Assembly (NCBI GenBank): GCA_022510615.1
Contig: JAFLTC010000002.1
Coordinates: forward strand, 67,850-131,849
Length of the DNA stretch: 64,000 nucleotides
DNA from: Lachnospiraceae bacterium
Lineage (GTDB): Bacteria > Bacillota > Clostridia > Lachnospirales > Lachnospiraceae
Reading direction: 5' to 3'
The first letter of the stretch is position 1. The number at the start of each line of letters is the position of its first letter. Shown here one piece after another: positions 15,115 through 44,747 of the stretch. Under the pieces are notes generated by a model. It worked only from the letters and a program-made list of their open reading frames with translations. It had not been told where the DNA came from and did not search any database. Both the position numbers and the translations under genes were made by a program.

Positions 15115-15197
15115 AAACAAGGGATACCATCTAATCGACTCAAACCGATAACGCTTCGCGTTAAAGGTTCTCGCTGATTGGATGGTATCCCTTGTTT
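15115..15197 (+). repeat. Dispersed structured hairpin element, copy 1
   Basis: AAACAAG-N11-AATCGACTC...AACGCTTCGCGTT...CTCGCTGATT-N11'-CTTGTTT. The same core recurs at 33026, 44419 and 44663. Confidence 0.9.
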
Positions 15198-15242
15198 AAA
15201 GATTCTAACCAAAAATTCTTTTCAATACTTATAATTTCTTTA

Positions 15243-16997
15243 TCAATTCGTTAGGGCGTTCATGACACCGTAATAGGCTGGCTTTGGCTGGAAGTTCTGG
15301 TCAAACAGTCTTGCCCAGCAGTCCTGGTCAGGGGCTGGATTCGTACCGAATACACTATAGGGATTATCGATTAAGCCGAAGAAGGTGACATTGGTAATAT
15401 TAGCGGTTCCACCTCCGTCTGTATCCTCATCGATGAGCATGTCCATCAATGCCTGATAATTTTTTCCCTGTTGTGTATAATCCGCCTCTGTCGGATTTTT
15501 GTAATCCGGTACCCGGTAGGTCAGTTCGGTCAGATGTATTTCCAATCCGGCTGCCGCAAAGTTTTGAATAGCCGTTCTGACACTGGCTACTCCGGGCCAG
15601 TTGGAATTTAAATAGGATTGCATACCAACACCGTCCAAAAGTCCGGCTTCCTTAATCGGTTTAACAATCTCAATAATTTTTTCGTTCTTGTCGGGCTGAA
15701 AGGTATTAAAATCATTGTAAAACAGCTTTACATCTTTATCGGCATACTTTCTTGCGTAGTAGAAGGCATCTGCCACAAATTCTTCTCCGATAATCTGATA
15801 CCAGGTAGAGTTGCGGTATCCATTTGGGGTAGAGGTGTCCACTGCCTCATTTACGACATCCCAGCAGTAGACAACACCTGGGTAATAGGTCTGGCAAAAT
15901 TCAAGAAGCTGTCTTATGTAGCTGCCCATTCGTTTTTGCATGGTTGTTTTATCTACATAGGCACCGCCACTGGAAAAACCTTCCCGGAAGAACCAATCCG
16001 GTGTCTGGGTGTGCCATACAAGAACGTGTCCGCGCATTTTGATTCCGCTTTGCTTACAAAATTCCAGATTATCCACAATCGGGCTGTAATTAAGGGCAGG
16101 AGTGTCATTTTTTCCGCTGGCGGCGTTTGACTGACTGGCCGACTGGTTTAACAAAAACTGAGGCTTCATCAGATTACTCAGTGTCGTACTGTTAAAGTGC
16201 CGTTTCATTACCTGCCGCATCTCCGGGGAAGCCGCCGTACTGTTGCCGGCAGAAGTACCGTTAATGGCTGCACCGATACTGAAATAGTTGCTGTAGGCAT
16301 CCTTTACGGAATCTAGATTTAAAGCAGTGGTTAAATCGTAGGTTGAAGAGGAGGATATGGTATCGGTATAGGAAGCATTTACGCTTGGTTTTGCCGGTAC
16401 ACTGACTGCCTCTGCCTCCGGAAGGGAGCCCGGGTTAAATGGTGAGGCTGTGCCACTCGGGGTGGCAGACGGACTCGCTGTTGGAGTATTGCCAGGGGTG
16501 GCAGACGGACTCACCGTTGGGGTGCCACTCGGGGTTGCGGACGGGCTCGCCGTTGGGGTGTTGCCGGGACCAGGAGACTTCACAACAGGTGTGGTAGCTG
16601 CTGCTGTCCTTGTCGGTGTAACAGTCGGCTTTATCGGTTCTTTGGCACGAATCGTAACCTTGCAGGAAAGACGATAGGTCTTTTTCCCCTTTTTTCGTTT
16701 TAATGTAACTCGTGCTGTAACACGGGCAGTACCTTTTTTTACTCCCCTTACAATGACGGAATTTTTCTTTTTAGATTTCAGTTTGATTTTTTTGTTGGAA
16801 GTTTTCCATTTTGTTTTCCGAATAAGGCTTTTCTTGACGCCGGTTACCTTTAATTTCTTTTTGCCGGCAATGGTTATTGACGCTTTTTTTGTCAGCTTAG
16901 GCTTTTTTACTTTGGCAGATGACAATTCCACCGGAGAAGTAAAAAGCAGAGTAAACAAAAGTAAAATTGCTATCCAACGTTGTTTTGTCTGAAACAT
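15243..16997 (-). CDS. Secreted GH10 endo-1,4-beta-xylanase with a Lys-rich Ig-like N-domain and P/S/T linker
   Basis: RGHVLVWH, WDVVNE, FYNDFN and HLTEL motifs. Signal peptide. GGAGG RBS favours 16997. Confidence 0.9.
   Translation of the reverse strand: MFQTKQRWIAILLLFTLLFTSPVELSSAKVKKPKLTKKASITIAGKKKLKVTGVKKSLIRKTKWKTSNKKIKLKSKKKNSVIVRGVKKGTARVTARVTLKRKKGKKTYRLSCKVTIRAKEPIKPTVTPTRTAAATTPVVKSPGPGNTPTASPSATPSGTPTVSPSATPGNTPTASPSATPSGTASPFNPGSLPEAEAVSVPAKPSVNASYTDTISSSSTYDLTTALNLDSVKDAYSNYFSIGAAINGTSAGNSTAASPEMRQVMKRHFNSTTLSNLMKPQFLLNQSASQSNAASGKNDTPALNYSPIVDNLEFCKQSGIKMRGHVLVWHTQTPDWFFREGFSSGGAYVDKTTMQKRMGSYIRQLLEFCQTYYPGVVYCWDVVNEAVDTSTPNGYRNSTWYQIIGEEFVADAFYYARKYADKDVKLFYNDFNTFQPDKNEKIIEIVKPIKEAGLLDGVGMQSYLNSNWPGVASVRTAIQNFAAAGLEIHLTELTYRVPDYKNPTEADYTQQGKNYQALMDMLIDEDTDGGGTANITNVTFFGLIDNPYSVFGTNPAPDQDCWARLFDQNFQPKPAYYGVMNALTN
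16450..16567 (-). repeat. 30-bp-period linker repeats (PSATP/GNTPTAS) within the GH10 gene
   Basis: GGGGT(G/T)GC(A/G)GACGG(A/G)CTC recurs every 30 bp. Confidence 0.7.
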
Positions 16998-17070
16998 AGG
17001 GTTCCCTCCTTTAATAAAATAAAAGGGTGTGGTCAAATCACACCCTTTTGAAAAATCATGTTAATGGTTA

Positions 17071-17892
17071 TTACAATTTGGCTAGCTGTGCTAAAGCTTT
17101 ATCCTTGACAATAATTTGAAAGTGTTCATTATAATAATCCTGAGTGGCATAGGTTACCGTTTCTTCTTTTCCAAATTCTGAAATAACAGAACATGCCAGT
17201 TGGAAAGAGGTTTTGGCATTGCCACGGTTTAAGAGGAGATAATAGCGGTTCGTTACCGTATCTTTCCATACCGTATTTTTTCCGGAATAATTTTCATTTA
17301 CCAGATGGGCAACCTCAATAATTGGATTCAGGGACAGGAAAGAATATACCTTTACACGCTCCTGAATTGCCTCTGTACTTTTTTTCTTATTTGTCTTTTT
17401 CCCTTTTTTTCCTTTTTGTAATGCCTCGCTTAACGGGATAAATTCGGATGAATCACGAGAGGAATTTTTACTTTCTGCTTCTTCAATCAAATCATGCAAC
17501 TGCTCAAAGCAATTTACAATTTCTGAGGCATCAATAGAGGAAGCATCCTCCTCGTCCTCTTCCATGTCCAGCTCATCCTCATCTTCATCCTCAAAATCCT
17601 CATCCTGAATACCAAAACGGGAAAATTTTTCATCAAATTCTTCCGGATTATCCACCTTGGTAATTACGAGGACAATGGAGTCCCGGGAAGTCGGGATTGC
17701 TTCTATCATCAAAGGAATGTCATCTGCATCAAATCCAAAATCGATGTTGGCTTGTTCCATCATATCACGAAAAAGTTCCTTCGCTTTCTCGGAACCATAG
17801 GCCAGCTCACTTATTTTAAGATGGCGTTCCATCAAATCGTGTTTGCTCAAAGTACAGCGGATTTGATTTTCACTAATTCGTTCAATCTTCAC
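17071..17892 (-). CDS. mecA: ClpC adaptor protein MecA
   Basis: N-terminal KIERISENQIRCTL, LMIEAIP, acidic linker and C-terminal ISEFG...EH motifs. Confidence 0.9.
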   Translation of the reverse strand: MKIERISENQIRCTLSKHDLMERHLKISELAYGSEKAKELFRDMMEQANIDFGFDADDIPLMIEAIPTSRDSIVLVITKVDNPEEFDEKFSRFGIQDEDFEDEDEDELDMEEDEEDASSIDASEIVNCFEQLHDLIEEAESKNSSRDSSEFIPLSEALQKGKKGKKTNKKKSTEAIQERVKVYSFLSLNPIIEVAHLVNENYSGKNTVWKDTVTNRYYLLLNRGNAKTSFQLACSVISEFGKEETVTYATQDYYNEHFQIIVKDKALAQLAKL

Positions 17893-18334
17893 AAGCACAC
17901 TTCCTTTCTAGTCGAACTGACTTATATTTGTATCAAAAGTATAAGTTATATTTGCCCTAAAGTCAACATATTAGAGGAAAAAAGTATCTGGAAATATTTA
18001 TATTATATGTTTAAACGGTATGAATTTTCGTATATACGACACTTGATTTTGCAAAACACCGTTAAGTATAATATAGTTAAGGGTAAAGCTGCACTAAAAT
18101 TGGGAGGTGGTTATCGGGGCTGATTTTACATATATTAAGTAATGAAAAGGAACATGTCAATATTTTTCGCAAATCTTTTTTTCTATTTTATTCATAGCAG
18201 TTAGTTACATTATAGTTATATTTCAATAAAAAATTCACAAAAAAATAAGGCAGTCTTTACCTGCAAGCTACAAAAGAATGGTTTACATCACGGAATACAC
18301 CTTCTTTTACTTTGTAGTTACAATAGGAGGACAT

Positions 18335-18580
18335 ATGCAAAACAATCAATGGATACTGGAGGAAGCGGCGTATGCAAAAGAACATGGAATCGCCATTGAT
18401 GTCGAAGGTATTTCCTACGAGGATAAAAGTCAGACAGAGCTTCTGAAGGTATTGGAACATGGGTCCTATATGTTAGATTATGAGGGGGATGCACTCGGTC
18501 GGATTATTGCTCTGCATGTTGACAGGGTGGGACCGTCTGAAAAACCGTCTTATAAATCGTTACGATGTACAAAAAAATAG
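18335..18580 (+). CDS. Small hypothetical protein
   Basis: AGGAGG RBS before ATG 18335, followed by a terminator-like hairpin. Confidence 0.65.
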   Translation: MQNNQWILEEAAYAKEHGIAIDVEGISYEDKSQTELLKVLEHGSYMLDYEGDALGRIIALHVDRVGPSEKPSYKSLRCTKK

Positions 18581-18678
18581 GCCGGAAAAGGGGCACGGGA
18601 ATTACGCGGTTTCCGTGCCTTATCCTATGTAGTGTGTCGTATTTGACAAAAAGAAGTGTATAAATTTCAAAAAAAGTA

Positions 18679-18707
18679 TTGACAAAAAAATGAGTGTGGG
18701 ATATAAT
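18679..18707 (+). promoter_or_regulatory. Consensus SigA promoter of the sulfur amino-acid operon
   Basis: TTGACA-17 nt-TATAAT with an A-rich UP region. Confidence 0.9.
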
Positions 18708-18714
18708 CCTAGTA

Positions 18715-18735
18715 TTCCTAGCAAACATGTAGGAA
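18715..18735. promoter_or_regulatory. Palindromic operator, probably for an Rrf2-family (CymR/IscR-like) repressor
   Basis: TTCCTA-N9-TAGGAA immediately downstream of the predicted +1. Confidence 0.6.
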
Positions 18736-18774
18736 AACTAAGAAATAAAAAATCCAAAGAAAGGAGAGCGCGTT

Positions 18775-18885
18775 ATGAAAAAAGTAACAACACGAAAAAT
18801 GATGCAGAGCAGGATGTGTTGCTGTAGCTTCATGCAGATGTGCGTGGCTATGGATTATTTTCATGCGTGTTGTTCTCCGGTGTGA
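18775..18885 (+). CDS. Met/Cys-rich leader peptide (36 aa), putative attenuator
   Basis: AAGGAG RBS. MKKVTTRKMMQSRMCCCSFMQMCVAMDYFHACCSPV contains 7 Met and 6 Cys. A terminator follows 25 nt after the stop. Confidence 0.8.
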   Translation: MKKVTTRKMMQSRMCCCSFMQMCVAMDYFHACCSPV

Positions 18886-18910
18886 TTGTGATATAGAATG
18901 CAAACATACG

Positions 18911-18945
18911 GCGCGGATACATCACGGCATGTGTCTGCGTTTTTT
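18911..18945 (+). terminator. Leader (attenuator) terminator
   Basis: GCGCGGATACAT-cacggc-ATGTGTCTGCGT (12 bp with G.U pairs) followed by a U-tract, upstream of the mccB RBS. Confidence 0.8.
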
Positions 18946-19002
18946 ATTGTCAACCTTCTTCGGAGTGAAACAGGAGAAAGAAAAGCAGAAAGGAATTTTA
19001 TT

Positions 19003-20166
19003 ATGAGTGAATTTAAAAATCATGCAATAAATACAAAATTGATTCATGGAGGGATTTCCACAGATGAGGCAACAGGGGCAGTAAATGTCCCGATTTACCA
19101 GACCTCGACCTTTAAGCAGGAAATTCCGGGCGTACATAAAGGATATGAATATTCTCGAACCGGGAATCCGACAAGAGAGGCGCTGGAAGCATTGATTGCA
19201 GAGTTAGAGGAGGGAATAGCCGGATTTGCCTTTGCCTCCGGGCTGGCAGCCATTACCGCAGTACTCAGCCTGTTTCAGACCGGGGATAAGCTGGTTATAT
19301 CCGATAACGTGTACGGCGGAACCTTCCGGGTACTGGATAAGGTCTTCAATAATTTTGGCATTGGCTATGTGTTAGTAGATACGACAGATATTAACAAGGT
19401 AGAAGAAGCCATAGATGAAACCGTGAAGGCGGTATATATTGAAACTCCGACCAATCCGCTCCTTGGCATTACGGATATCCGTGCCGTGTCGGAAATTGCA
19501 AAGAAAAAAGGGCTTCTAACGATTGTGGATAATACCTTCTATACACCGTATCTGCAGAGACCGATTCCGGAAGGGGCGGATATTGTCATTCACAGTGCTA
19601 CAAAGTATCTGGGAGGACACAGTGATGTAGTGGCAGGGCTGGTTGTGGTAAATGATAAAGAGCTGGCAGAAAAAATTGCCTTTTTGCAAAATTCCACCGG
19701 CGGAGTGCTTTCTCCATTTGATTCCTTTTTACTGATTCGGGGTATCCGGACGTTGGGTGTACGGCTGGACCGGCATGTGGAAAACGCAGAAAAGCTGGCA
19801 CAGTTTTTGCAGGGTCATCCGGAAGTAAAAAAGGTATACTATCCGGGATTGAAAGAGCATCCGGGATATAAAATTAATAAAAAGCAGGCAAAGAACGGCG
19901 GTGCTATGATTGCCTTTGAATTAACGGAAAACCATGATGTTAATAGATTTTTCAAAAACCTTCATATTATCAGTCTGGCAGAGAGTCTGGGAGGAATTGA
20001 ATCCCTTGTCTGCCATCCGGCTTCCATGACCCATGCGGCAATTCCGGAAGAAATCCGGAATGCGGTGGGAATTACAAAAGGACTCATCCGGCTCTCTACC
20101 GGAATAGAGGAGAGAGAGGAATTAAGGCAGGATTTGGAGCAGGCGATTACCGCTTCCCGGATTTGA
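19003..20166 (+). CDS. mccB: Cystathionine gamma-lyase / PLP-dependent transsulfuration enzyme
   Basis: PIYQTSTF, YSRTGNPT, ETPTNP, DNTF, HSATKYLGGHSD and SLGGIESL motifs. Adjacent to an MccA-like gene. Confidence 0.85.
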   Translation: MSEFKNHAINTKLIHGGISTDEATGAVNVPIYQTSTFKQEIPGVHKGYEYSRTGNPTREALEALIAELEEGIAGFAFASGLAAITAVLSLFQTGDKLVISDNVYGGTFRVLDKVFNNFGIGYVLVDTTDINKVEEAIDETVKAVYIETPTNPLLGITDIRAVSEIAKKKGLLTIVDNTFYTPYLQRPIPEGADIVIHSATKYLGGHSDVVAGLVVVNDKELAEKIAFLQNSTGGVLSPFDSFLLIRGIRTLGVRLDRHVENAEKLAQFLQGHPEVKKVYYPGLKEHPGYKINKKQAKNGGAMIAFELTENHDVNRFFKNLHIISLAESLGGIESLVCHPASMTHAAIPEEIRNAVGITKGLIRLSTGIEEREELRQDLEQAITASRI

Positions 20167-20179
20167 AAGGGGGAGGCCT

Positions 20180-21097
20180 ATGAAATACTATGAATCTACA
20201 CAGGATATGATTGGCGATACCCCCATGGTTAAGCTCTCTTACATGGGAGCGGGCCTTAGGCCAGAGATATTTGCAAAATTGGAACTCTACAATCCGTCGG
20301 GCAGTGTAAAAGACCGTATCGGAAAATACATGATAGAGGATGCTGAGAAAAAAGGGTTGCTAAAGCAGGGTTCCACAATCGTGGAAGCTACGGCGGGAAA
20401 CACCGGACTGGGAATAGCCTTTGCCGCATTAAACAAAGGTTACCGGATTATCTTTGTCGTGCCGGATAAATTTTCCATAGAAAAGCAGCAGTTAATGAAA
20501 GCACTGGGAGCAGAGCTGGTGCATACGGCGAGAAAAGACGGTATGCAGGGAGCCGTGAAGAAGGCGGAAGAACTGAGGGAGGAAATCCCCGGAGCCATTT
20601 CTCTGGAGCAGTTTAAAAACCAGAGCAATCCCCTGGCTCATTATGAGACAACGGGACCGGAAATCTATGAAGCCATGGAAGGCAACATTGATTATGTGGT
20701 GTTAGGTGCCGGAAGCGGAGGAACCTTTACCGGAATAGTAAAGTATCTGAAGGAAAGAAATCCGAAGATACAGGGAATTTTGGCAGATCCCATTGGCTCC
20801 ACCATAGGAGGCGGAGAACATGGTGATTACAATATAGAAGGAATCGGGAATGATTTCATTGCGGACACAATGGACATAAGTCTTGTGGATGAGGTCATTA
20901 AGGTGTCCGACAGAGAAGCCTTTGAGGCTTCCCGCCAGCTGGCAAAAAAAGAGGGGATATTTGCAGGAAGCTCCTCCGGTGCGGCACTGGCCGCCGCCAT
21001 AAAGCTGGCAGAAACAAAGGCGGGCGGAAATATTGTTGTGGTATTACCGGACAGGGGTGACAGATATTTCAGTGCCCACTTATATGATGAGGAATGA
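20180..21097 (+). CDS. mccA: O-acetylserine-dependent cystathionine beta-synthase / cysteine synthase family enzyme
   Basis: NPSGSVKDR, EATAGNTG, GSGGT and IEGIG motifs. The ATAGNTG/KFS-EK signature and pairing with mccB favour MccA over CysK. Confidence 0.75.
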   Translation: MKYYESTQDMIGDTPMVKLSYMGAGLRPEIFAKLELYNPSGSVKDRIGKYMIEDAEKKGLLKQGSTIVEATAGNTGLGIAFAALNKGYRIIFVVPDKFSIEKQQLMKALGAELVHTARKDGMQGAVKKAEELREEIPGAISLEQFKNQSNPLAHYETTGPEIYEAMEGNIDYVVLGAGSGGTFTGIVKYLKERNPKIQGILADPIGSTIGGGEHGDYNIEGIGNDFIADTMDISLVDEVIKVSDREAFEASRQLAKKEGIFAGSSSGAALAAAIKLAETKAGGNIVVVLPDRGDRYFSAHLYDEE

Positions 21098-21111
21098 AAG
21101 GTGGTATAACC

Positions 21112-22146
21112 ATGAGCGAAGAAACAGAAATATTCCGGCTGGAGCATGTATCCAAAGTATTCCGGGACAAAAATGCGGAAGTTACGGCGGTGGATGATGT
21201 CAGCCTCAGTATCCATAAGGGCGAGGTGTTTGGCATTATTGGTATGAGCGGTGCCGGTAAAAGTACGCTGGTTCGGACGCTGAATCGACTGGAAAATGTG
21301 ACAGAGGGAAGGATTTCCTTTGACGGTGAGGTTTTAGGAGAACTGTCGGAGAAAAGACTTCGAAAGGTCAGACAGTCCATGGCGATGATATTCCAGAGCT
21401 TTAATCTGCTGATGCAGAAAAATGTGCTGGCAAATGTAATGCTGCCGATGAAAATAGCTAAGGTAGAAAGAAAAGAGCGGAGAGAACGAGCGCTTGAAAT
21501 GCTCCGGGTAGTAGGATTAGAGGATAAGGCGAAAGCATATCCGGCACAGCTGTCCGGTGGGCAGAAACAGAGAGTTGCCATTGCCAGAGCACTATCCATG
21601 AATCCGAAGGTTCTTCTCTGCGATGAGGCCACCAGTGCCTTAGACCCGAAAATTACCGAGGAAATTCTGACTTTGCTGGGAGAAATTAACAAGACGATGA
21701 AGCTGACCATTGTCATTATCACCCACGAAATGTCCGTGGTAGAAAAAATCTGTGACAGGGTAGCGATTATTGATAAAGGGAAATTAGCCGAGGTAGGACC
21801 GGTGGAGGAAATCTTTACCAGTCCAAAGACAGAAGCAGCAAAACATCTTGTATTCCCGGCGAAGCAGGAAATGGATAATCCCTTCCATATGACAGATAAA
21901 AGATGTGTCCGGATTGTATTTGACGGACTTGCCGCCAATGAGCCGATTATTGCCAACCTGGTGCAGGATACCGGGGAAAAGGTAAATATCCTCTGTGCCA
22001 ATACAAAAAGTGTTGGCGGTGTGGGATTTGGGCAGATGATAGTAGAGCTGCCTAAAAACCCGGATGCGGCAGAAAGAGTATTAGAGTATTTCAAACAGGC
22101 AGGTGTAGTTACCACTGAGGTTGAGAGAGAGGAGGAAAATGTATGA
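21112..22146 (+). CDS. metN: Methionine ABC transporter ATP-binding protein
   Basis: GMSGAGKS, LSGGQKQR, CDEATSALDP motifs and a C-terminal NIL domain. Confidence 0.92.
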   Translation: MSEETEIFRLEHVSKVFRDKNAEVTAVDDVSLSIHKGEVFGIIGMSGAGKSTLVRTLNRLENVTEGRISFDGEVLGELSEKRLRKVRQSMAMIFQSFNLLMQKNVLANVMLPMKIAKVERKERRERALEMLRVVGLEDKAKAYPAQLSGGQKQRVAIARALSMNPKVLLCDEATSALDPKITEEILTLLGEINKTMKLTIVIITHEMSVVEKICDRVAIIDKGKLAEVGPVEEIFTSPKTEAAKHLVFPAKQEMDNPFHMTDKRCVRIVFDGLAANEPIIANLVQDTGEKVNILCANTKSVGGVGFGQMIVELPKNPDAAERVLEYFKQAGVVTTEVEREEENV

Positions 22147-22796: not shown

Positions 22797-22828
22797 ATTA
22801 ATATTAAAAAGTTCAGGAGGAAAGAAAC

Positions 22829-23671: not shown

Positions 23672-23704
23672 AACAAAATTTGAAAATTGAAAGGAGATAA
23701 AAAA

Positions 23705-24259: not shown

Positions 24260-24271
24260 AACAGAGAAAGG

Positions 24272-25447: not shown

Positions 25448-25489
25448 ATCGGTACATAATACAGGCGCACTAACAGAAAGGAGACCGGG

Positions 25490-26329: not shown

Positions 26330-26353
26330 AAACAGAACTAGGAGAGTGATAGT

Positions 26354-26899: not shown

Positions 26900-27035
26900 A
26901 AAAATAAAAAAATTTATATTTTTGCAACATATTCTCCTGTTGAATCGTTTTATTGGTATAAAGAGTAAAAAATACCCGCAACGCAATTAAATAGTGCAGG
27001 ATTCGGGAGGAGAAAGTTTTTTTATATCGGGAGTG

Positions 27036-27079
27036 GCACCGCCAGTTTGGACCTTGGTTCAGATTGGCGGTGCTTTTTT
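27036..27079 (+). terminator. Rho-independent terminator
   Basis: GCACCGCCAGTTTGGAC / GTTCAGATTGGCGGTGC followed by T6. Confidence 0.85.
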
Positions 27080-32326: not shown

Positions 32327-32330
32327 TTTT

Positions 32331-32975
<645 letters not shown>

Positions 32976-33025
32976 TTAAGTAAGACGGCATTTGCCTTTC
33001 GGAAATCAATTATAAAACAGAGCCC

Positions 33026-33111
33026 AAACAAAAAGAAACCATCCAATCAGCGAAAACCTTTAACGCGAACGCGTTACCGGTTTGAGTCGATTGGATGGTT
33101 TCTTTTTATTT
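33026..33111 (-). repeat. Dispersed structured hairpin element, copy 2 (downstream of nfnB)
   Basis: Reverse complement of the copy-1 core with a covarying outer stem. Confidence 0.88.
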
Positions 33112-33121
33112 TATCCCTCTT

Positions 33122-34516: not shown

Positions 34517-34518
34517 GA

Positions 34519-35361: not shown

Positions 35362-35578
35362 CTTTCCTCCATTCTGTGCCAACCCTGTGCGCCGGCACAA
35401 ATTATAATTTTCACATAGCATTCCTATTTTATCACAAGAAACGACCAAATTCAATTAGAAACCTTGTTTTTTATGCTGAATGGGGTTGACAAAACAAGAG
35501 CTATAATGTAATCTTTACAATAAGAAGTGGTTTTAAAAACTACATCCAGTAGAAAAAAAGTCTACCAACAAAGAAAGG

Positions 35579-37270: not shown

Positions 37271-38495
37271 CAGATTGGTTGTAACCGGTATGGGAGCGGT
37301 GACCCCTATCGGTATCGGAGTAGAGGAATATTGGAAAAATCTTGTGGCAGGAAAATGCGGTGTAGAAAAAATTACCCGCTTTGATACGGAAAATCTTCCG
37401 GTTAAAATTGCGGCAGAGGTAAAAAATTTTGATGCTCTTCAGTTTATGCCGAAAAAGCTCACGAGAGAAATGGATGTTTTCATGCAGTATGGATATGCAG
37501 CGGCAATGGAAGCAATCGAGCAGGCCGGTAAACCGGCAGCCACACCGGATCGTATGGGTATTGTCGTGGGAACAGCATTGGGTGGGATTGCGCCGATTGC
37601 AGAAACACAGCATGGCGTCAGCACCGGTGAGCATAAAAAGGTAAGCCCGAGATTTGTTCCGAAAATTATCGGAAACGAGGCAGCAGCCCAGGTAGCGATT
37701 GAGAAGGGATACCGGGGCCCGAGCCTTACCGTCAGCACGGCATGTTCCTCCGGAGGGGATGCCATCAGCGCAGCGGCGATGCTTCTCATGTCAGGTCAGG
37801 CAGATGCTGTTTTGGCAATGGGAACGGAATCGGCATTATCACCGCTTTTTATTCTGGGTCTTTCTTCTGCCCATGCACTGTCTACTAATAATGATAATCC
37901 ACAGGGAGCCAGTCGGCCCTTCGATAAGAACCGGGATGGTTTCGTCATCGGCGAAGGGGGCGGTGCCCTTATTATAGAAACAGAAGAAAATGCAAAAAAA
38001 CGCGGAGCAAAAATTTTAGCCGAACTGGCAGGTTTTTCAAACTGCACAGACGGCTATCATGTAACGAGCCCTCATCCGGAGGGCGTCGGTGCCATATTCT
38101 GTATGGAAAAGGCGATTTCCCATGCGGGGCTAAAGCCGGAGGATGTGGATTATATCAACACCCACGGAACCTCTACCCCGGTGGGAGACCCGATTGAGAC
38201 GGCGGCCATCGCCGAACTTTTCGGCAGCCACGCCCCGGACATGGCGGTAACCTCCACAAAGGGAGCTACCGGACACATGATGGGGGCAGGTGGAATTACC
38301 GAGGCGATTACCTGTATTCAGTGTATCCGCACCGGAGTAGTGCCGCCGACCTTAAATTATGAAACCCCGGATGAAAAATGTGTACCGTTAAATTTCGTGC
38401 CGGGAAAGGCCATTGAGAAAAAAGTTCAGGTTGCCATGAGTAACTCCTTTGGCTTCGGCGGTCAAAACTCCAGTGTTGTATTTCGGAAATATTAA
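37260..38495 (+). CDS. fabF: 3-oxoacyl-ACP synthase II
   Basis: TACSSG, HGTST-GD, KGATGH and SNSFGFGG motifs. Confidence 0.92.
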   Translation: MSNSRLVVTGMGAVTPIGIGVEEYWKNLVAGKCGVEKITRFDTENLPVKIAAEVKNFDALQFMPKKLTREMDVFMQYGYAAAMEAIEQAGKPAATPDRMGIVVGTALGGIAPIAETQHGVSTGEHKKVSPRFVPKIIGNEAAAQVAIEKGYRGPSLTVSTACSSGGDAISAAAMLLMSGQADAVLAMGTESALSPLFILGLSSAHALSTNNDNPQGASRPFDKNRDGFVIGEGGGALIIETEENAKKRGAKILAELAGFSNCTDGYHVTSPHPEGVGAIFCMEKAISHAGLKPEDVDYINTHGTSTPVGDPIETAAIAELFGSHAPDMAVTSTKGATGHMMGAGGITEAITCIQCIRTGVVPPTLNYETPDEKCVPLNFVPGKAIEKKVQVAMSNSFGFGGQNSSVVFRKY

Positions 38496-39673
38496 TGATT
38501 CTTTGTCAAATTTGCTTCTGAATCATATCCTAACAATGGCAGCGTATGGTGTTCCTTATAATGCTTTCCATTATAATCGTAGGCCGGATAGTAGTGTTCC
38601 TCATAATATTTCTTCCATTTCTGATAGGACTCTTTGCGCTCCTGAATCACTGTACCAATATTCTCCCTTGTCAGAAGCCGTCCAAATCCTTCAAAAGGAC
38701 ATTCTTTTCCGGTCATGACATCTACCATCAAATTACCGACTTCAGCGAAAAAATGTGCCGGGTTGTAGAAATTATATGGACACAGGGCAATATCGCTGTA
38801 GTTATTAAAGCACCATACATCGCCACAGAGCATAACGGTTTCTTCCATAAATTCATAGAATACATCCGTTTCATATTGTATCATCTGTGCGGCAAACAGC
38901 GGGGCAAAATATACCTGCAGTTCCACGCCATGCTTATCACAGACTTCCTTGATCTCTTTTAATTTTTCCAGACTGGCTTCCTTGTTTTCCTCTATGTCCC
39001 TCAGCTGTTTATAGAAAAACTTGTAGTATACATAGGAGCCACGAAATATATACTTATAATATTCGTCGTTTTTCAGTTTTGATTTCAGATTCGCATAGTA
39101 GTGAGAGATATCACGCTCTCCGGTTTCTTTATTTGGACGAATCACAGGAGGGTCCAGTAACCTTTCCACTGATGTTTTCGGGTTTTTCATCAGGAAAGTA
39201 ACTGCCTCTACCAGTTTTGATTCTCCTGTTACCTGTGCCGGTATTTTATAAATAGGTCCTTTATCCGAGCGGTCAACATCGTATAGCTCGGAGGTAGATA
39301 TCTGAAGAAGAATTTTTTTGGCATTGGTGTTCTCGCATATATATTTTGCATAAGCAGCATAATCGTTAAAATTTCCCGACAATACCCAGCAATTATAATA
39401 TTTGTAACCATCCAGTTCCGTCAGCTTGGAAGGCTGCATGACACCTGCTTTGGAACCGCCAATCAGATAAGCATCATACCGATCTGAAAAATATTTGATA
39501 TGCTGTGCTTTCTGTTCACGCATATACTCACTCGTGCCCAAATTGTAGTAGTCTCCGGGCTGGCTTCTAAAATACCCATACGGGTCCACAAAATAATTCA
39601 ATGACATAATCACAATCAGACATATCAGAATCAATGCCAGAAAGGAAATTGTCCATTTTTTTGCACTCATCAT
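38492..39673 (-). CDS. Membrane-anchored SGNH-like partner of the MBOAT O-acyltransferase
   Basis: N-terminal TM helix with VDPYG, plus GGSK and FYNPAHF motifs. Directly downstream of the MBOAT gene. Confidence 0.6.
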   Translation of the reverse strand: MMSAKKWTISFLALILICLIVIMSLNYFVDPYGYFRSQPGDYYNLGTSEYMREQKAQHIKYFSDRYDAYLIGGSKAGVMQPSKLTELDGYKYYNCWVLSGNFNDYAAYAKYICENTNAKKILLQISTSELYDVDRSDKGPIYKIPAQVTGESKLVEAVTFLMKNPKTSVERLLDPPVIRPNKETGERDISHYYANLKSKLKNDEYYKYIFRGSYVYYKFFYKQLRDIEENKEASLEKLKEIKEVCDKHGVELQVYFAPLFAAQMIQYETDVFYEFMEETVMLCGDVWCFNNYSDIALCPYNFYNPAHFFAEVGNLMVDVMTGKECPFEGFGRLLTRENIGTVIQERKESYQKWKKYYEEHYYPAYDYNGKHYKEHHTLPLLGYDSEANLTKNH

Positions 39674-39696
39674 AACAAGTATCTCCTTTCCCCAAA

Positions 39697-41109
39697 TTAA
39701 AACTGGAAGTACAAAAATTGTACCACTTTATCCATACTGCAAATACATATAATGAGAAGGGCTGCAGCATACACAAGAGAGATCCAGTTCGTCTTAAACT
39801 TCTCTGTAAGCTTCTTTGTTGTCGGCAGGAACCAGCAAATTCCCAGACCCACAAAGGTCAATACAATATTTTTCCAATTATCATTTGCAAAGGCAATCGC
39901 ATCTGCCATGTGAAGAGAACCGACACGTATCAGGCTTTTGAGCACCTGCCAGGCATCCCTAAAGGTCTCAGACACAAACAAAATACGGGTCATTACTGCC
40001 AGTAAGAATGTTAGCGGCACTCCTAACCACACCGGTGTATTCATTCCCTTGCGATTGCGCCAGGAAGCAATACATACAAGAATACCGTTTACAATACCCC
40101 AGACAACAAATGTCCATCCGGCACCGTGCCAGAAACCGGATACAAAGAAGGTTACCATCGTTGCCACATAATAATTGCGATATTTACTTCCTTTCTTGAA
40201 TACATTCCGGAATACATAGGCTCCCAGAAATCTTGATAATGTCATGTGCCATCTCTGCCAGTATTCCTGAAAATCCTTTGCCTTGTACGGCGAATTGAAG
40301 TTCTGTGGTATCGCAATATTGAACATCCAGCCAAGTCCGATTGCCATATCCGCATAACCGGACAAATCGAAGTAATAGGATACGGTATACTCAATGGAGT
40401 GAAACCATGACTGCAGCATCGGCAGATGATTATTGATATCTCCGAAAAAGATCTCGGCATCGGTGGTCAATGGGTCGGCCAGAAGCATTTTTTTGGCACA
40501 TCCAATAGAAAAGATTAACAGACCTTTCGCCACATTATCCCAGATAATTTTTGAATTATCCGGATTTTCAAACTGCGGTACAACCTCTGCATGATGTATA
40601 ATAGGTCCCACAATCAGCTGCGGGAAAAATGTAATAAACAGTAAATAGTGCAAAACATCATAAGTCTTTGTTTCACCGCGGTATGAGTCAACTAAAAAGG
40701 CAATCAGCTGGAAGGTAAAGAATGAGATACCAATCGGTAAAACAATATGCTTCAGTGCAAAATCTGCACCCGTCAGCCGGTTGACATTCACTAGGAAAAA
40801 GTCGGTATATTTGTAATAACCAAGCAGACCACAGTTGGCCAGAACACCTACCGTTAAAAGCAGGGCGCGCTCAATCCGGTGCTTGTCTCCCTGTAAATTA
40901 CTGAGCGTGCTGCCGATTACATAGTTCCCAACTACACTGCCCAGGAAAAATGGGAAGAAGTCCGGACTTCCCTGTGAATAAAAGTAAAAGGATGCCAGTA
41001 CCAGCCATAGCTTTGCGGCGGATTGCAGTTTAAAATGATGGAGCATAAAATAACCGCAAAAAGTAATTGGCAAAAAGATTAAAATAAATTGATACGTTGA
41101 AAAAATCAT
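39697..41109 (-). CDS. MBOAT family O-acyltransferase (AlgI/DltB-like)
   Basis: LPIGISFFTFQ, FFPQLIVGPI, DLSGYADMA, WQRWHMTLS, SGFWHGA and FLYFQF motifs. Confidence 0.92.
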   Translation of the reverse strand: MIFSTYQFILIFLPITFCGYFMLHHFKLQSAAKLWLVLASFYFYSQGSPDFFPFFLGSVVGNYVIGSTLSNLQGDKHRIERALLLTVGVLANCGLLGYYKYTDFFLVNVNRLTGADFALKHIVLPIGISFFTFQLIAFLVDSYRGETKTYDVLHYLLFITFFPQLIVGPIIHHAEVVPQFENPDNSKIIWDNVAKGLLIFSIGCAKKMLLADPLTTDAEIFFGDINNHLPMLQSWFHSIEYTVSYYFDLSGYADMAIGLGWMFNIAIPQNFNSPYKAKDFQEYWQRWHMTLSRFLGAYVFRNVFKKGSKYRNYYVATMVTFFVSGFWHGAGWTFVVWGIVNGILVCIASWRNRKGMNTPVWLGVPLTFLLAVMTRILFVSETFRDAWQVLKSLIRVGSLHMADAIAFANDNWKNIVLTFVGLGICWFLPTTKKLTEKFKTNWISLVYAAALLIICICSMDKVVQFLYFQF

Positions 41110-41172
41110 AGTGTTTTTGTCAGGCTAATTGCGCCGTTCCTCCTCGTTCTAATATTTTTTATTTGAAAATAG

Positions 41173-43401
41173 CTATTTATATGAAGGTACTTCTGCGGGC
41201 ATAAAGTACCGGTCTTTCCATAGGGACTCAGTCAGTGCGGTATATTCTGCTTCCGTAGTATTTTTCATCACATTTTTAAAAATGGTATCGGAATCATATA
41301 GTTCCGCGCTCATGGCAGAAGTTACCTTCGTTAAATTAGCATTCAAATACATAATTTTTTTTGTTCCTGCATTCGGACTCCACACATTCCATTTTGGAAG
41401 TGAGGTGCCATTTGGATTGCCGTTTGTCATAAAATTTTTCAGATAGGAACGCATCTGATCAGTCAAAGCTAGTCTTCCCGCTCTGTTTTTAGAAGAAATC
41501 GCATCCGGTGAGTATTCCTCCATTACCTTTTTAAATTTTCCCAGCAGAAAATACCGGGTCTGTCCATGGTAGGCTCCCACATACTTACTATAGAAACCAT
41601 CCGTTACAGAAGGATTTGTTCCCCACAGCAGTCGGTAAGCGTATACATTTTTATGCGAAGCGTCCTGATAAAGGGCGTTTACCGTATTTTCAATGTAGAA
41701 ATAGGACTGTAGCATGCTGCCGTACCTAATTCCCTTTTCCAGTAGTTCCAACATCTTTGTGGATGAAAGTGACGATAAATCCGCATCACTGGATATGAGT
41801 TTTCCCTTCAGCGCAAATTCAGCAAATTCCGTAACATCACTGCCCAGCATAATAGGCACACGGTTATAATTCCCCGTTTTTATAAGTTCAAATCCTTTTT
41901 TCGGCAATACGGTACCATCGGTAAAGCCCTGAGGAAAAGAAGTCAGCCTCAAGGTAGCACTTTTAAATATCCAGGCGACCTCTGCCGTCGTCAGACTCCG
42001 AAAAAGTTGATTCAACTCTTCTGTTGTGGAAGATTTAATATAGTCGAGGGCGTCGTTATCAGTTTCATAGGCTCCCCGTTGTACTAAAATGGCGGCCAGC
42101 CGTTCTTCTACCTTTTGCTGCCCATCCTCCGGCGTACAGGTAGTGTATCCCCCACTCATAATAAATGCCTTTTGGAATAATCCCTTCATCATCGGTGAAA
42201 TCAGACACATCAGTGCATCCCTGCCCCCACAGGAGAACCCGGACAGCGTTACATTGGAAGGATTACCGCCAAATGTCGCAATCTCTTTTTGGGTCCAGAG
42301 TAACGCCTCGTGGATATCTAACAAAGTGAAGTTGCCACTGTTTTCCTCCGGTGTGCCATTCTGCAGTGCCGGATGGCTTAAGTAGCCAAAGGCTCCCACG
42401 CGAAAGGAAACAGAAACAATGACAATACCCATGGAAGCCGCCATATCACCAAAATCAACATTGGCGGTTCCCGATACATTGCCGCCACCATGTAAGTACA
42501 CCAATACAGGTAAGTTCTCATTTGATGAATAGGGACGATATACATTTACATACAGACAATCTTCCGTTCCTATATATCCGTTGGTACTGGAACTGCTATA
42601 GGAGACGGCATCTTCACGCTCTGTCGTGGTATTTTTTGTTCCCGACCACGCAGCCACCGGCTGAGGTGCCCTCCAGCGATTGGCGCCCCCTGTAGAGGCC
42701 CCATACGGAATGCCGTACCACGCCATGGCTGTTCCGGAAGAAATCTTTAGCCCTTTTACCTTTCCTTTTAATGTAGTACGTGTCAGCGCGGGCTTCTCTT
42801 CAACGGTGACTTTAATGATGATGCTCTTCATTCCGTTCTTTTTCTTTGTGTAGCCAGTTACCTTTGTCGTTCCGGCCGCTACTGCGACAATTTTCTTGTT
42901 GGAAATTTTAACAATTTTTTTATTTGCCGATTTCCATTTCAGCTTGGAAACCTTCTTTTTCCTGGCAGCGGATAATTTGCTCTGGTTAGTAACCGCCGTG
43001 ATCTTAACCGAATCTCCGTTATACATACGATAGGAAATATTCGAAGGCTTCGGAACAACGGTAACCTTAATGGTGATACTCTTTTCTTCATTCTTTTTAT
43101 AGCCGATAATCTTTGTCGTTCCCGCTTTCACGGCGACAATTTTCTTTTTAGAAATTCTGGCATATTTTTTCTTTTTAGACTTCCATTTCAGTTTGGAAAC
43201 CTCTTTTTTCTCGGCAGCGGATAATTTGCTTTTTTTGACAACTGTCTTAAGCTTAACTTTATCCCCTTTATACATTTGATAGGAAATCACAGATGCCGCC
43301 TCACTGACGGTGGTATTTCCCATAAAGGATGGTTGAACCAAGCCTGCAAACATAGAACATATTATGATAAATATCCCTGCTTTGCCTGTTATTATCCTCA
43401 T
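41173..43401 (-). CDS. Secreted type-B carboxylesterase with two tandem Lys-rich Ig-like domains
   Basis: GIPY, EDCLYVNV, HGGG, FGGNPSNVT and GFSCGG motifs. Duplicated ISYxMYxGDxVK...IxVTV module. Confidence 0.85.
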   Translation of the reverse strand: MRIITGKAGIFIIICSMFAGLVQPSFMGNTTVSEAASVISYQMYKGDKVKLKTVVKKSKLSAAEKKEVSKLKWKSKKKKYARISKKKIVAVKAGTTKIIGYKKNEEKSITIKVTVVPKPSNISYRMYNGDSVKITAVTNQSKLSAARKKKVSKLKWKSANKKIVKISNKKIVAVAAGTTKVTGYTKKKNGMKSIIIKVTVEEKPALTRTTLKGKVKGLKISSGTAMAWYGIPYGASTGGANRWRAPQPVAAWSGTKNTTTEREDAVSYSSSSTNGYIGTEDCLYVNVYRPYSSNENLPVLVYLHGGGNVSGTANVDFGDMAASMGIVIVSVSFRVGAFGYLSHPALQNGTPEENSGNFTLLDIHEALLWTQKEIATFGGNPSNVTLSGFSCGGRDALMCLISPMMKGLFQKAFIMSGGYTTCTPEDGQQKVEERLAAILVQRGAYETDNDALDYIKSSTTEELNQLFRSLTTAEVAWIFKSATLRLTSFPQGFTDGTVLPKKGFELIKTGNYNRVPIMLGSDVTEFAEFALKGKLISSDADLSSLSSTKMLELLEKGIRYGSMLQSYFYIENTVNALYQDASHKNVYAYRLLWGTNPSVTDGFYSKYVGAYHGQTRYFLLGKFKKVMEEYSPDAISSKNRAGRLALTDQMRSYLKNFMTNGNPNGTSLPKWNVWSPNAGTKKIMYLNANLTKVTSAMSAELYDSDTIFKNVMKNTTEAEYTALTESLWKDRYFMPAEVPSYK

Positions 43402-43593
43402 TGTCAGTTCCTATCCTTTCTTGCTATAATCCAACATATGCTATCATAACATAATGATAAAATTTTGTCATTATATATAATACATAAATTTTTCCAGATA
43501 GTTATTCTTTATTTTAGCATATGTATAAAATGTTTTTTCTGGGAAATCCTATATATAAAGGAAAAATAACCTTTAGAAAGGAAGGATTACAGG

Positions 43594-44052
43594 TTGAAAT
43601 TTAAATTTAGGGCAGCAGTTACCGTGGCAGTAGTTTTTTGGACGGTAGTTTTTGTACAGATAGCAGTAACCCGGCTTTATATGTCAAAAACCGGTTTTAC
43701 ACAGGCCTTTGCCAGAAACCAGCTTGTTGTGACAAAGGAAAATACGGATTCCCGGAACACGCAAGAAGGAAACACTTGCATTGAGGGAAGGGTTCTTGGT
43801 AAAATGGTAAAAGAAGATATGGCGGAGCTGGCAGAGGAGCTGTTTCGCAGTATGGGTGGAAGCCGTGTCCTTGATAGTAGTATGGACACCTATGGAAATT
43901 ATTATGTAGCCTATGGATATACAAGCGGTATTGCCAATACAAAAAACGTAAACGGAAAAAATATTAATCTTAATGTTGCCATGTCGTATAACGAGGAAGA
44001 AAATTGTACGGAGATTATTATGGGAACGCCGCTTATCAATTCGGACTTTTAA
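43594..44052 (+). CDS. YwmB-like protein
   Basis: N-terminal TM helix. GKNINLNVAM...GTPLI-xDF C-terminus. Confidence 0.7.
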   Translation: MKFKFRAAVTVAVVFWTVVFVQIAVTRLYMSKTGFTQAFARNQLVVTKENTDSRNTQEGNTCIEGRVLGKMVKEDMAELAEELFRSMGGSRVLDSSMDTYGNYYVAYGYTSGIANTKNVNGKNINLNVAMSYNEEENCTEIIMGTPLINSDF

Positions 44053-44109
44053 TGTCCCTGGCATTGTTATGCTATCATTGTGTCAGATGAAAATGAAGGG
44101 GGAAGGACT

Positions 44110-44394
44110 ATGCCTACGGAAGAAAAATTGTATGACCTTGCGGAGCTGTTTAAGGTTTTCGGCGATACGACAAGAATCCGTATTCTATATGAATTATTTG
44201 AAAAGGAAATGTGCGTGGGGGATATTGCCGATACGTTACATATGACCCAGAGTGCCATTTCCCACCAGCTGAGGGTATTAAAGCAGAATCGTTTGGTAAA
44301 ATTCCGTAAAGAGGGGAAGACCGTGTTTTATTCTCTGGATGATGACCATGTGCGGAGTGTGATAGAGATGGGGCTGGAGCATGTGATGGAGTAG
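44110..44394 (+). CDS. ArsR/SmtB (CadC-like) metal-sensing repressor
   Basis: LAELFKVFGDTTRIRIL, CVGDIA, QSAISHQL and DDHV...EH motifs. Confidence 0.92.
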   Translation: MPTEEKLYDLAELFKVFGDTTRIRILYELFEKEMCVGDIADTLHMTQSAISHQLRVLKQNRLVKFRKEGKTVFYSLDDDHVRSVIEMGLEHVME

Positions 44395-44418
44395 AGGTGT
44401 TGCCTGAAACAGTTTTGG

Positions 44419-44501
44419 AAACAAGAGAGATTAGTCAATCGACTCGAACCGGAAACGCTTCGCGTTTGAGGTTCTCGCTGATTGACTAATCTCTCTTGTT
44501 T
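44419..44501 (+). repeat. Dispersed structured hairpin element, copy 3 (downstream of the ArsR gene)
   Basis: Same 83-bp architecture and core as copy 1, with a different but complementary stem. Confidence 0.9.
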
Positions 44502-44662
44502 GAAACTATCAGGCGACACCTCTGCTTCATCACATGGCGAGATGGCTTTCCTGTTACTCTGTTTAGTAACGTCATTTTTTTTGTTCCAAGGAAAAGCTGA
44601 CCCGGCGGCGGATAGAGTTGTAAACTTTTGCATTTTTGTTAGCTGTCGTTTTAATAGTGTAA

Positions 44663-44747
44663 AAACAAGAAACATCCACTAACCAGCGAGAGCATTTAAT
44701 GCGAAGCATTACTTCTGCTCGAGTCGGTTAGTGGATGTTTCTTGTTT
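44663..44747 (-). repeat. Dispersed structured hairpin element, copy 4 (downstream of cadA)
   Basis: Core with compensatory changes (AATGC/GCATT, GAGCA/TGCTC, AACC/GGTT) and AAACAAG...CTTGTTT ends. Confidence 0.88.

Follow-up and report, generated by a model that had tools for sequence, protein, structure and literature searches.

Our analysis of a 64,000-nt stretch of DNA (the window) and of related genomes revealed a family of dispersed, terminator-like palindromic repeats that is restricted to a single genus of the Lachnospiraceae. We consider it probable that these repeats serve as the intrinsic terminators of the genes they follow, that they have spread by copying and that their conserved internal loop is a recognition site. 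Each copy consists of an A-rich tract, a three-helix hairpin of approximately 35 bp and a T-rich tract. It follows a stop codon at a distance of between a few and a few tens of nucleotides and most likely provides the host gene with both its intrinsic terminator and its 3′-end hairpin.

The earlier note had described four copies in the window, and its coordinates and strands were all correct; a covariance model of the hairpin family (R1) matched these four only (97 to 102 bits, E value of approximately 1e-21). Copy 1 (15115 to 15197, plus strand; R1 match 15109 to 15203, 100.2 bits) is a B-type hairpin of −46.3 kcal/mol (z of −10.3 against shuffles) that lies 29 nt 3′ of the stop codon of a DUF1858 gene, with a convergent GH10 xylanase gene on its far side. 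Copy 2, also B-type (33026 to 33111, minus strand; R1 match 33021 to 33116, 97.2 bits; −45.5 kcal/mol), is found in a co-directional neighbourhood, 10 nt 3′ of the stop codon of an NfnB/GltD-like gene. The remaining two copies form a convergent (+,−) pair, in which the first partner is the B-type copy 3 (44419 to 44501, plus strand; R1 match 44413 to 44507, 101.4 bits; −47.7 kcal/mol), 25 nt 3′ of the arsR stop codon, and the second is the A-type copy 4 (44663 to 44747, minus strand; R1 match 44657 to 44753, 102.5 bits; −47.4 kcal/mol), 52 nt 3′ of the stop codon of a cadA-like P-type ATPase gene. Pfam bore out the identities given earlier to the flanking genes (DUF1858, NfnB/GltD-like oxidoreductase, ArsR and P-type ATPase). 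Each copy folds as a single long hairpin (−45.5 to −47.7 kcal/mol, z of −10.3 to −11.2), and none of 200 shuffles was equally stable. The apex reads GCTTCGC in copies 1, 3 and 4 (GCGAAGC on the opposite strand, as reported before) and GCGTTCGC in copy 2. The statement that the element belongs to no named family holds for Rfam: no family of Rfam 15 matched anywhere in the window at gathering thresholds, and in E-value mode just generic miRNA-type hairpin models appeared, at no more than 38 bits against cut-offs of 83 to 144 bits.

Scanning the genome and other Lachnospiraceae with the covariance model, as the earlier note had proposed, yielded approximately 48 copies in this 2.1-Mb genome, spread over some 25 contigs, and confined the range to one genus. 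The family is present in 25 of the 72 species of the genus (genomes of these other species carry G labels below), where the number of R1 matches that passed the search filters ranges from 1 to about 50 or more in each genome, and in 0 of 139 other genera of Lachnospiraceae. Pattern searches outside the genus yielded chance matches only, and pattern or BLAST searches of plasmids, phages and viral contigs returned no copies.

The stems covary, as had been claimed from the exchange of AACGC/GCGTT for AATGC/GCATT and of GAACC/GGTTC for GAGCA/TGCTC, and from lower stems that differ between copies yet remain complementary. When 58 copies drawn from a number of species were aligned, 97.1% of cells were paired, a value that 0 of 500 shuffles equalled, and 27 of the 29 pairs had changed on both sides. 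Older copies, including those of the window, would be retained by selection while their stems change through compensated substitutions. The internal loop, CGACTC opposite TCGCTG, is nearly fixed and persists even between species that differ in their stems and apex. Its inner part, GACTC/TCGCT, had been called invariant; this is so in the window but not genome-wide, where approximately eight copies carry CGATTC/TCACTG, in which a C-G pair within the loop has become T-A by compensated change. An abundant subfamily of G070 has TCTCTG in place of TCGCTG. Terminator function alone does not account for the conservation of the loop sequence across species, and the loop probably serves for recognition, be it by the machinery that makes new copies or by a factor that acts at the 3′ end of the RNA. 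The distal part varies as a module (short, full and long types occur), and the opposite-strand apex forms a GNA or GNRA-type loop (GAA, GGA, GCA or GTA) in 41 of 54 copies.

These features bear on the first of the two interpretations offered earlier, a protein-recognised RNA motif of 3′-UTRs. The 3′-end location, the orientation bias and a loop conserved across species while the stems turn over fit such a motif; a partner protein was not found, and neither was a sense excess of G.U pairs, of which there were 132 on the sense strand and 113 on the antisense strand. Because G.U pairs are not commoner on the sense strand, selection specific to the mRNA strand lacks support. Taken to its full extent, this interpretation makes the family a purely cis-acting structured RNA at mRNA 3′ ends, through which a clade-specific protein would control stability, processing or factor-dependent termination, with no mobility of its own. 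A loop that persists while stems and apex turn over, a distal part as modular as in functional RNAs and the sense bias toward the nearest stop codon all agree with it, and the describers of the mycobacterial TRIT repeat proposed likewise for TRIT (PMC3152330). We nevertheless judge it unlikely, given the near-identical G070 copies with their sharp boundary and accessory modules, the changed loop strand of the G070 subfamily, the patchy, species-specific copy numbers, the balance of G.U pairs and the roughly one-fifth of copies that lie antisense.

Copies concentrate between convergent genes. They occupy 27 of 194 convergent gaps in this genome, compared with 12 of 1252 co-directional and 1 of 181 divergent gaps, and a stop codon usually lies 20 to 40 nt upstream. 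The elements had been described as always sense to the upstream gene, which is true of the window, whereas genome-wide there is a strong bias only (approximately 80% of copies). The other 20% or so, antisense to the nearest gene, count against the terminator-repeat reading. Co-directional contexts hold about six to seven sense and four antisense copies, and where a lone copy separates two convergent genes, the gene to which it is sense was the nearer one in 18 of 21 cases. Close pairs in this genome and G049 were arranged (+,−) in about 14 cases, (−,+) in none and in the same sense in one; the paired copies differ in subtype (A with B) and in their stems. In G070, 19 of 20 copies were sense, 5 to 39 nt 3′ of the stop codon of a co-oriented reading frame, with which longer loci agree.

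Judged from sequence, the simplest functional reading, which the earlier note missed, is that the element stands in for the intrinsic terminator of the gene. A stable hairpin is followed by a T-rich tract and preceded by a mirror A-tract, with a mean of 5.3 T in the 9 nt that adjoin the outermost G-C pair on its 3′ side and 5.4 A on its 5′ side (2.5 expected). The copies lie at the ends of transcription units and avoid promoter regions, and the gene ends bearing the window copies have no other terminator-like site. The simple terminator scanner used does not flag the element because its stem is far longer than in typical terminators. In support of this reading, element and canonical terminator were interchanged at the four orthologous sites compared. 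At the nfnB-like site, G049 carries a short-type copy and G046 an ordinary GC-rich terminator; at efp and gdhA, the orthologous site of a sister species shows an ordinary hairpin, GC-rich and followed by a T-run, exactly at the position of the element; and the reverse case, with element and ordinary terminator interchanged, was found between locus L067 of G049 and contig C49 of this genome. We infer from position and anatomy that transcription does terminate there, and since the A tract on one side is the mirror of the T tract on the other, the element would usually act as a bidirectional terminator.

Eight to ten copies of the family are nested in bigger palindromes that cover the final codons and stop of the host gene. 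For copy 3, the proximal arm (44380 to 44407, plus strand), which contains the last arsR codons and the TAG stop (44392 to 44394), pairs with a distal arm (44509 to 44536, plus strand) that repeats the 3′ end of arsR in inverted form and lies in the spacer between both elements; 25 of 28 positions match in the flank inverted-repeat alignment (z of 12.5 against shuffles), and the whole extended region folds at −107.8 kcal/mol. The palindrome around copy 4 was detected at 44596 to 44816. Its proximal arm (44750 to 44816, minus strand) comprises the 3′-UTR, stop codon (44800 to 44802) and last codons of the cadA-like gene, and its distal arm (44596 to 44660, minus strand) is an inverted, slightly decayed copy of that 3′-UTR and the last codons, with 51 matches and 9 mismatches in the same type of alignment (z of 13.9) and a 251-nt fold of −126.8 kcal/mol. 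The arms decay mainly by transversions and without G.U excess (11 G.U, 7 A.C and 19 transversions).

This decay, together with mismatch statistics that are alike on both strands and the strong enrichment in convergent gaps, would fit a role at the level of DNA, in which the repeat forms a cruciform or a site for gyrase or a nucleoid protein, as in BIMEs, and eases supercoiling between convergent genes, its covariation arising by arm-to-arm template switching, as in quasipalindromes, and not through selection on RNA. A core flipped relative to its flanks at site L173 and a flipped apex in one copy of this genome (C48:16968) are what recombination between arms is expected to produce. Still, the bias to the nearest co-oriented stop (19 of 20 copies in G070) is hard to explain without transcription, and correction from arm to arm would erase the conserved mismatches unless these were selected, which makes such a role distinctly improbable in our view.

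In G070, 17 near-identical copies share a mosaic unit of approximately 110 nt with a sharp 5′ edge and 80 invariant columns, and the family forms mosaics with other repeated modules. Near-identical, sharp-edged mosaic copies imply that some copying mechanism exists; new copies would arise by such a process, with a recent burst in this one species. The copies of the genome under study are old, with a top pairwise identity of 89% and a similarity within the genome about equal to that between genomes, so that mobility here is shown indirectly only. Compared with G049, about half of the assessable sites are unshared; at the rnfB site, element type and orientation vary among three species, and the arsR/cadA-like pair of copies 3 and 4 is kept in G049 and absent from G046.

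Searches for a target-site duplication, a parent insertion sequence (IS) and a mobilising enzyme of the family found none. Considered as a MITE of the DDE type, the unit in G070 begins sharply on its 5′ side (GGGG...) and ends in a 3′ module that is loosely inverted; a duplication was not recognisable and a parent IS was not found. The distribution does not fit that of integron attC sites, which occur in cassette arrays beside an integrase gene: the copies are scattered over about 25 contigs, after housekeeping genes such as rnfB, efp, gdhA and nfnB.

The second interpretation of the earlier note, a REP/PATE-like element moved by a Y1 transposase, stood as far as a dispersed repeat, patchy within one genus and prone to bursts with near-identical copies in G070, is concerned; its link to a Y1 enzyme was not supported. 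A REP/REPIN- or PATE-like element that depends in trans on a Y1 transposase of the HUH class (a RAYT or the TnpA of an IS200/IS605) would suit an imperfect palindrome with conserved mismatches, the opposite-strand apex loops and the common inverted pairs, and a multi-copy IS200-like tnpA is present in G070, the species that had the recent burst. Y1_Tnp (PF01797), however, is absent from this genome (88% complete) and from the element-rich G015, G065, G219 and G075, and only a fragment occurs in G049, all as judged from incomplete genomes. The tnpA loci in G070 and G058 carry no element. Derivation as a PATE from IS200/IS605 was not supported, as the IS200 end hairpins of G070 are unrelated and the left module of the repeat occurs in 0 of 4 G070 tnpA loci (L178, L180, L182 and L183). 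The pairs, inverted (+,−) as in REP/REPIN doublets, join different subtypes with different stems rather than near-identical twin units, and two partners within 200 bp of each other cannot both follow the replication strand. In the incomplete genomes searched, no Y1 (RAYT) gene was flanked by repeats. Taken with these observations, a Y1-driven origin is very unlikely.

Spread could depend on the 3′ ends of transcripts or on the hairpin as such, for example through hairpin-primed template switching or an RNA-mediated step, so that terminators would be copied from one gene to another independently of a transposase and with the loop as the recognition point. We put this forward tentatively, as a possibility of low probability suggested by the young copies, which are nearly always sense and lie 5 to 39 nt past stops, and by the inverted last codons of the host gene that flank some copies. 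In the reading that we favour, structure, covariation, distribution, equivalence in position to terminators and recent amplification have been shown, and actual termination, the way in which copies are made and what the loop does are inferred.

For gut Firmicutes, the family provides a clean example, rich in covariation, of terminators with a conserved sequence. It is used by approximately 1 in 7 convergent gene pairs of this genome and is relevant to the annotation of transcription units in metagenome-assembled Lachnospiraceae genomes. Several R1 matches sit at contig ends in G049, and the element matters for assembly for that reason. The G070 burst, with its near-perfect placement and orientation past stops, offers a tractable system for studying how a terminator-like repeat spreads when no transposase is known for it and what recognises its conserved loop, questions that stand equally for SPRITE and TRIT.

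The repeat is a new family of a known kind, that of the SPRITE/TRIT/REP-like terminator repeats. Like the pneumococcal BOX, it is a modular Firmicutes repeat that may lack its inner module or hold several of them and in which the outer parts still pair; BOX differs in its terminal inverted repeats and target-site duplications, is not terminator-like and is weakly enriched in convergent gaps (PMC3049150). REP/BIME and REPIN-RAYT of proteobacteria (PMC3337134) are likewise extragenic imperfect palindromes at gene 3′ ends, with frequent inverted pairs, lineage-specific copy numbers and mosaics (here in one species). No RAYT was found for the present family, however, and its unit measures 85 to 95 nt against 20 to 40 nt, its pairs are of different subtypes and its orientation follows the nearest gene.

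TRIT, the Tuberculosis Rho-independent terminator (Gardner et al. 2011, PMC3152330), is also a sequence-conserved palindromic hairpin with approximately 50 to 150 copies, mostly bidirectional, genus-restricted and tightly tied to gene termini; like our extended arms, it reaches into the 3′ end of the coding sequence, and its authors suspected that an extra factor binds the conserved duplex. The description drawn on here makes no mention of recent amplification or a mosaic form, both of which our family has in G070. As described there, TRIT differs in its GC-rich actinobacterial host and has an unrelated sequence. According to later work, TRIT lacks a good U-tract, unlike the present family with its A and T tracts.

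The pneumococcal SPRITE, also proposed to be a co-opted terminator (2011, PMC3049150), comes from Firmicutes as well and has tens of copies with a long duplex between A and T runs. Each is the repeat most enriched between convergent genes, near the 3′ ends of coding sequences, with a narrow taxonomic range and without a known target-site duplication or related IS. By the description in the SPRITE paper (PMC3049150), the sequences are unrelated, and our hairpin exceeds that of SPRITE in length and has three helices, an internal loop of conserved sequence and modular apex variants, to which the family adds heavy compensatory change, arms over stop codons and a strong sense bias. What it shares with SPRITE and TRIT, namely a conserved multi-copy hairpin with A/T flanks near 3′ termini, convergent enrichment and a narrow range, places it with them in kind only.

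The four copies described in the earlier note, 15115-15197 (+), 33026-33111 (-), 44419-44501 (+) and 44663-44747 (-), here copies 1 to 4, are present at these positions and on these strands, and Pfam agreed with the naming of their neighbour genes (DUF1858, NfnB/GltD-like oxidoreductase, ArsR and P-type ATPase, respectively). Each copy forms a single long hairpin (-45.5 to -47.7 kcal/mol, z -10.3 to -11.2) of three helices with two symmetric internal loops between them, reading G.U, A/C, C-G, U/C, C/U and then GG facing AA. The proposed covariation was borne out by RNAalifold, which gave 35 pairs for the four copies, 18 of them with compensated double changes. The window corresponds to contig C42:67850-131849 of a draft genome of 2.11 Mb in 129 contigs (88% complete, 44% G+C). 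A regular expression recovered 18 copies from this genome, and a covariance model trained on them (R1) raised the number to approximately 48. R1 scored about 100 bits on the modelled strand versus about 50 on the reverse strand, and the orientation of a copy is therefore well defined. The family proved to be modular, with a full type (~95 nt) whose subtypes A and B are distinguished by their middle and apex helices and their lower stem, a short type (~76 nt) without the apex hairpin and a long type (~137 nt) with one additional hairpin. One contig, C73 (3,256 bp), is 98.6% identical over its full length to contig C81 of G049, another species genome of the genus, versus ~70-85% elsewhere in orthologous DNA, and probably comes from a G049-like strain through mis-binning. 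It is kept in the tally of ~48 copies, the orientation tally of single copies, the strand-stability count and the gap census, and left out of later counts.

An alignment of 58 copies from several species extended the structural result: 97.1% of pair cells were standard pairs and 27 of 29 pairs showed changes on both sides. None of 500 shuffles matched these pairing and covariation values, and slid controls fell to 36-46% paired. Four rows were reverse-strand matches, and among the remaining 54 sense-strand rows the 5′ loop strand read CGACTC[GA] in 41 and the 3′ loop strand [CT]TCGCTG in 42. The loop strands, previously taken as invariant, are thus nearly fixed, but in about seven copies a C-G to T-A swap occurs jointly on both strands. 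More distant species of the genus retain AATCGACTCRA...TYTCGCTGATT, but their apex stem (ATTCGC/GCGAAT) and lower stems are not the ones seen here. A K-turn reading of the loop was rejected on inspection, as the sense strand has neither a 3-nt bulge nor in-register tandem G.A pairs. On the antisense strand, tandem G.A pairs (CGAG/CGAG) and GNA loops would form, and this strand is the more stable one in 35 of 48 copies, though by only ~1 kcal/mol. G.U pairs are equally frequent on either strand (132 versus 113, C73 left out), so the structure itself is silent on which strand is read; given this balance and the GAAA on the sense strand of the short type, either strand may be the functional one.

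The position of the copies relative to genes is far from uniform. Using our own crude greedy ORF calls of 100 amino acids or more, we found elements in 27 of 194 convergent gaps, 12 of 1,252 co-directional gaps and 1 of 181 divergent gaps of the window's own genome. The copies are preceded (5′) by A-rich and followed (3′) by T-rich sequence, the two flanks mirroring each other (C73 left out). The elements were said to lie always sense to the upstream gene, that is, on its strand; genome-wide, this is a strong bias but not a law. In 18 of 21 convergent gaps with a single copy, the element lies closer to its sense gene than to the other gene, and co-directional contexts hold about six to seven sense copies versus four antisense ones, the latter located after gdhA, before ylxM-ffh, at C1:154496 and as the second member of a pair. 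Close pairs, which combine different subtypes, occur at about 14 independent sites of this genome and G049 in the convergent (+,-) orientation, at none as (-,+) and at one in the same sense. In G070, a further species genome, 19 of 20 copies lie 5-39 nt past the stop of a same-strand reading frame entering from the edge of the extracted locus, and this placement and orientation were confirmed on three longer loci. On contig C39, approximately 40-60 nt past the gdhA stop (L131:1200-1225), the stretch AATAATCAAGAAAATCC resembles the 5′ half of the A-type lower stem and stands just before the antisense copy; it may be a remnant of a lost sense partner from a former (+,-) pair.

Comparison with sister species revealed what replaces the element at orthologous gene ends. 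At four such sites, an ordinary GC-rich hairpin with a T-run stands exactly at the element position: the nfnB-like gene ends in a full copy in the window's own genome, a short copy in G049 and a canonical terminator in G046; efp ends in a long-type copy in the window's own genome and in a canonical terminator, different in each, in G049 and G046; gdhA ends in the element versus a canonical terminator in a sister species; and in the reverse case, G049 has the copy and the window's genome the canonical terminator. Within the window, a terminator pattern scan flagged no site in the gaps right after copy-bearing stops. We infer that the element acts as a terminator at its gene end. The gap between arsR and the ATPase gene holds a (+,-) pair both here and in G049. 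The corresponding stops in G046 lie ~70 nt apart with no hairpin, and no terminator is visible for these two convergent genes; this gap (L027:1400-1500) is made up of the arsR 3′ end in direct repetition, with GGAGCATGTGCTG.A.CTGTGA repeated. Directly downstream of copy 2, a gene at 32331-32945 (-) encodes a serine recombinase of 204 amino acids with a Resolvase N-terminal domain (Pfam). Because synteny with both sister species stops exactly at copy 2, the recombinase gene probably belongs to an insertion unique to this genome.

Larger palindromes enclose eight to ten copies of this genome, nearly all of them belonging to close pairs. The arms beyond the element (25-65 nt, about 88% complementary, z 9-23 versus shuffles) are inverted copies of the 3′ UTR, stop codon and last 3-10 codons of the adjacent gene. 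Both members of the window pair carry them, and the whole regions fold at -107.8 and -126.8 kcal/mol; one arm-bearing copy, C48:16758, is antisense to its gene. We considered arms as a sign of young copies and rejected this, since arm-bearing copies have no closer relatives among the copies, and since at the cadA site G049 has arms as well, with sequences that do not align to those found here, each set tracking its own gene end. Mismatches in the arms are mainly transversions (19, versus 11 G.U and 7 A.C), with no excess of G.U. In our interpretation, the palindrome itself probably generates and renews the arms as inverted duplications at the DNA level, via template switching between arms; in read-through RNA, they may hide the stop codon. 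Genome-wide, nine long palindromes were flagged, of which four are centred on family members and one (C51) is just a masked N run. A second, unrelated kind of long terminator-like hairpin was seen at C75:91391-91530 and C61:227-315, with the common stems GGAAAGAAC/GTTCTTTCC; the arms of the C75 hairpin extend as far as the stop codon upstream of it, and in G049 that site is occupied by a family member. A perfect palindrome with 54-bp arms at C35:27858-27965 could reflect either faulty assembly or an IS junction, and another perfect one, C97:17039-17127, adjoins a masked stretch.

The copies in the window's own genome are old: no two of them are more than 89% identical, and they resemble one another about as much within the genome as between genomes. 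The A and B subtypes are older than the split from G049, and the two genomes have several sites in common; of the G049 sites that could be assessed, about half are either empty or different in the window's genome. At the rnfB end, three species carry three versions, a sense B-type, a sense short A-type and an antisense B-type copy. G070 presented another picture, with 17 copies having a common unit of ~110 nt in which a small hairpin module on the left precedes an A-run, the core hairpin and a T-run. The 5′ edge of this unit is sharp, 80 of its columns are invariant and another 18 are conserved at 90% or above; alternative repeated right-hand modules follow it in a BIME-like mosaic. The modules (L160-L177) recur in varying order, one being the hairpin GTCTTAC...GTAAGAC and the other ATACTTATCTAGTGCTGACATTCC. 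One copy has its core inverted relative to the flanks, and the abundant G070 subfamily has TCTCTG rather than TCGCTG as the 3′ loop strand. Such near-identical units indicate that a copying mechanism was recently active in at least one lineage.

The link to a Y1 transposase suggested in the earlier note did not hold; no such gene was found in this draft genome or in several other element-bearing ones. Ordinary IS200-type copies do occur in other genomes, including G070, at loci without the element and with unrelated end hairpins. No recognisable target-site duplication was found at the elements, and a search for empty sites of the young G070 copies found no orthologues. An autonomous element between two C13 copies 1.3 kb apart was rejected on reading the translations by eye: neither ORF is transposase-like, one being a broken response-regulator-like gene and the other a 163-amino-acid ORF with a hydrophobic N-terminus. 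A recurrent neighbour gene as partner was likewise discarded, the sole recurrence being paralogous proteins related to the window's GH10-domain gene, the one member to which Pfam was applied. An IS with a DDE_Tnp_1_6 transposase (L155:1386-3011, from G012:C17), presumably IS1182-like judging from its Pfam hits, has inserted immediately beside the one copy of that genome, perhaps by chance and perhaps because the IS targets the hairpin.

The family has a narrow range. R1 matched 25 of 72 species genomes of the genus, with 1-49 matches per genome under the search filters, which are not copy numbers (46 in the window's own genome, 49 in G049, 31 in G070, 16 in G058, 13 in G065 and 12 in G219); these relatives are non-independent samples. 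In G049, R1 matches were in several cases located at contig ends. There was no match in 139 other genera of the Lachnospiraceae, and 1 of 16 other families of the order gave a weak one (8.7e-4). Scanning 185,579 species genomes for the exact pattern gave 56 stretches, of which the model confirmed 22, labelled Eubacterium sp., Clostridium sp. CAG:167, Clostridium sp. AF37-5, uncultured Lachnospiraceae or Clostridium; the others were dismissed as chance matches. BLAST found nothing similar in plasmid and phage collections, and the exact pattern had zero matches in IMG/VR viral contigs. The element had not been recognised as a named family, and indeed no Rfam 15 family reached its gathering threshold anywhere in the window; an E-value scan of 44300-44850 returned generic miRNA hairpin models alone, far under their cut-offs. 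An uptake-sequence function was rejected, the conserved 9-mers being found mostly within the elements themselves.

Among known systems, REP/BIME elements resemble the family in being palindromic and in forming inverted pairs and mosaics, but their defining link to a RAYT does not extend to the element. The nearest systems are SPRITE and TRIT, which like the element are dispersed, sequence-conserved, terminator-like hairpins of narrow range, are enriched at convergent gene ends and have no known mobilising enzyme. As described by its authors, who suspected a binding factor, TRIT overlaps stop codons. We file the element as a new family of the SPRITE/TRIT-like kind of dispersed terminator-like hairpins.
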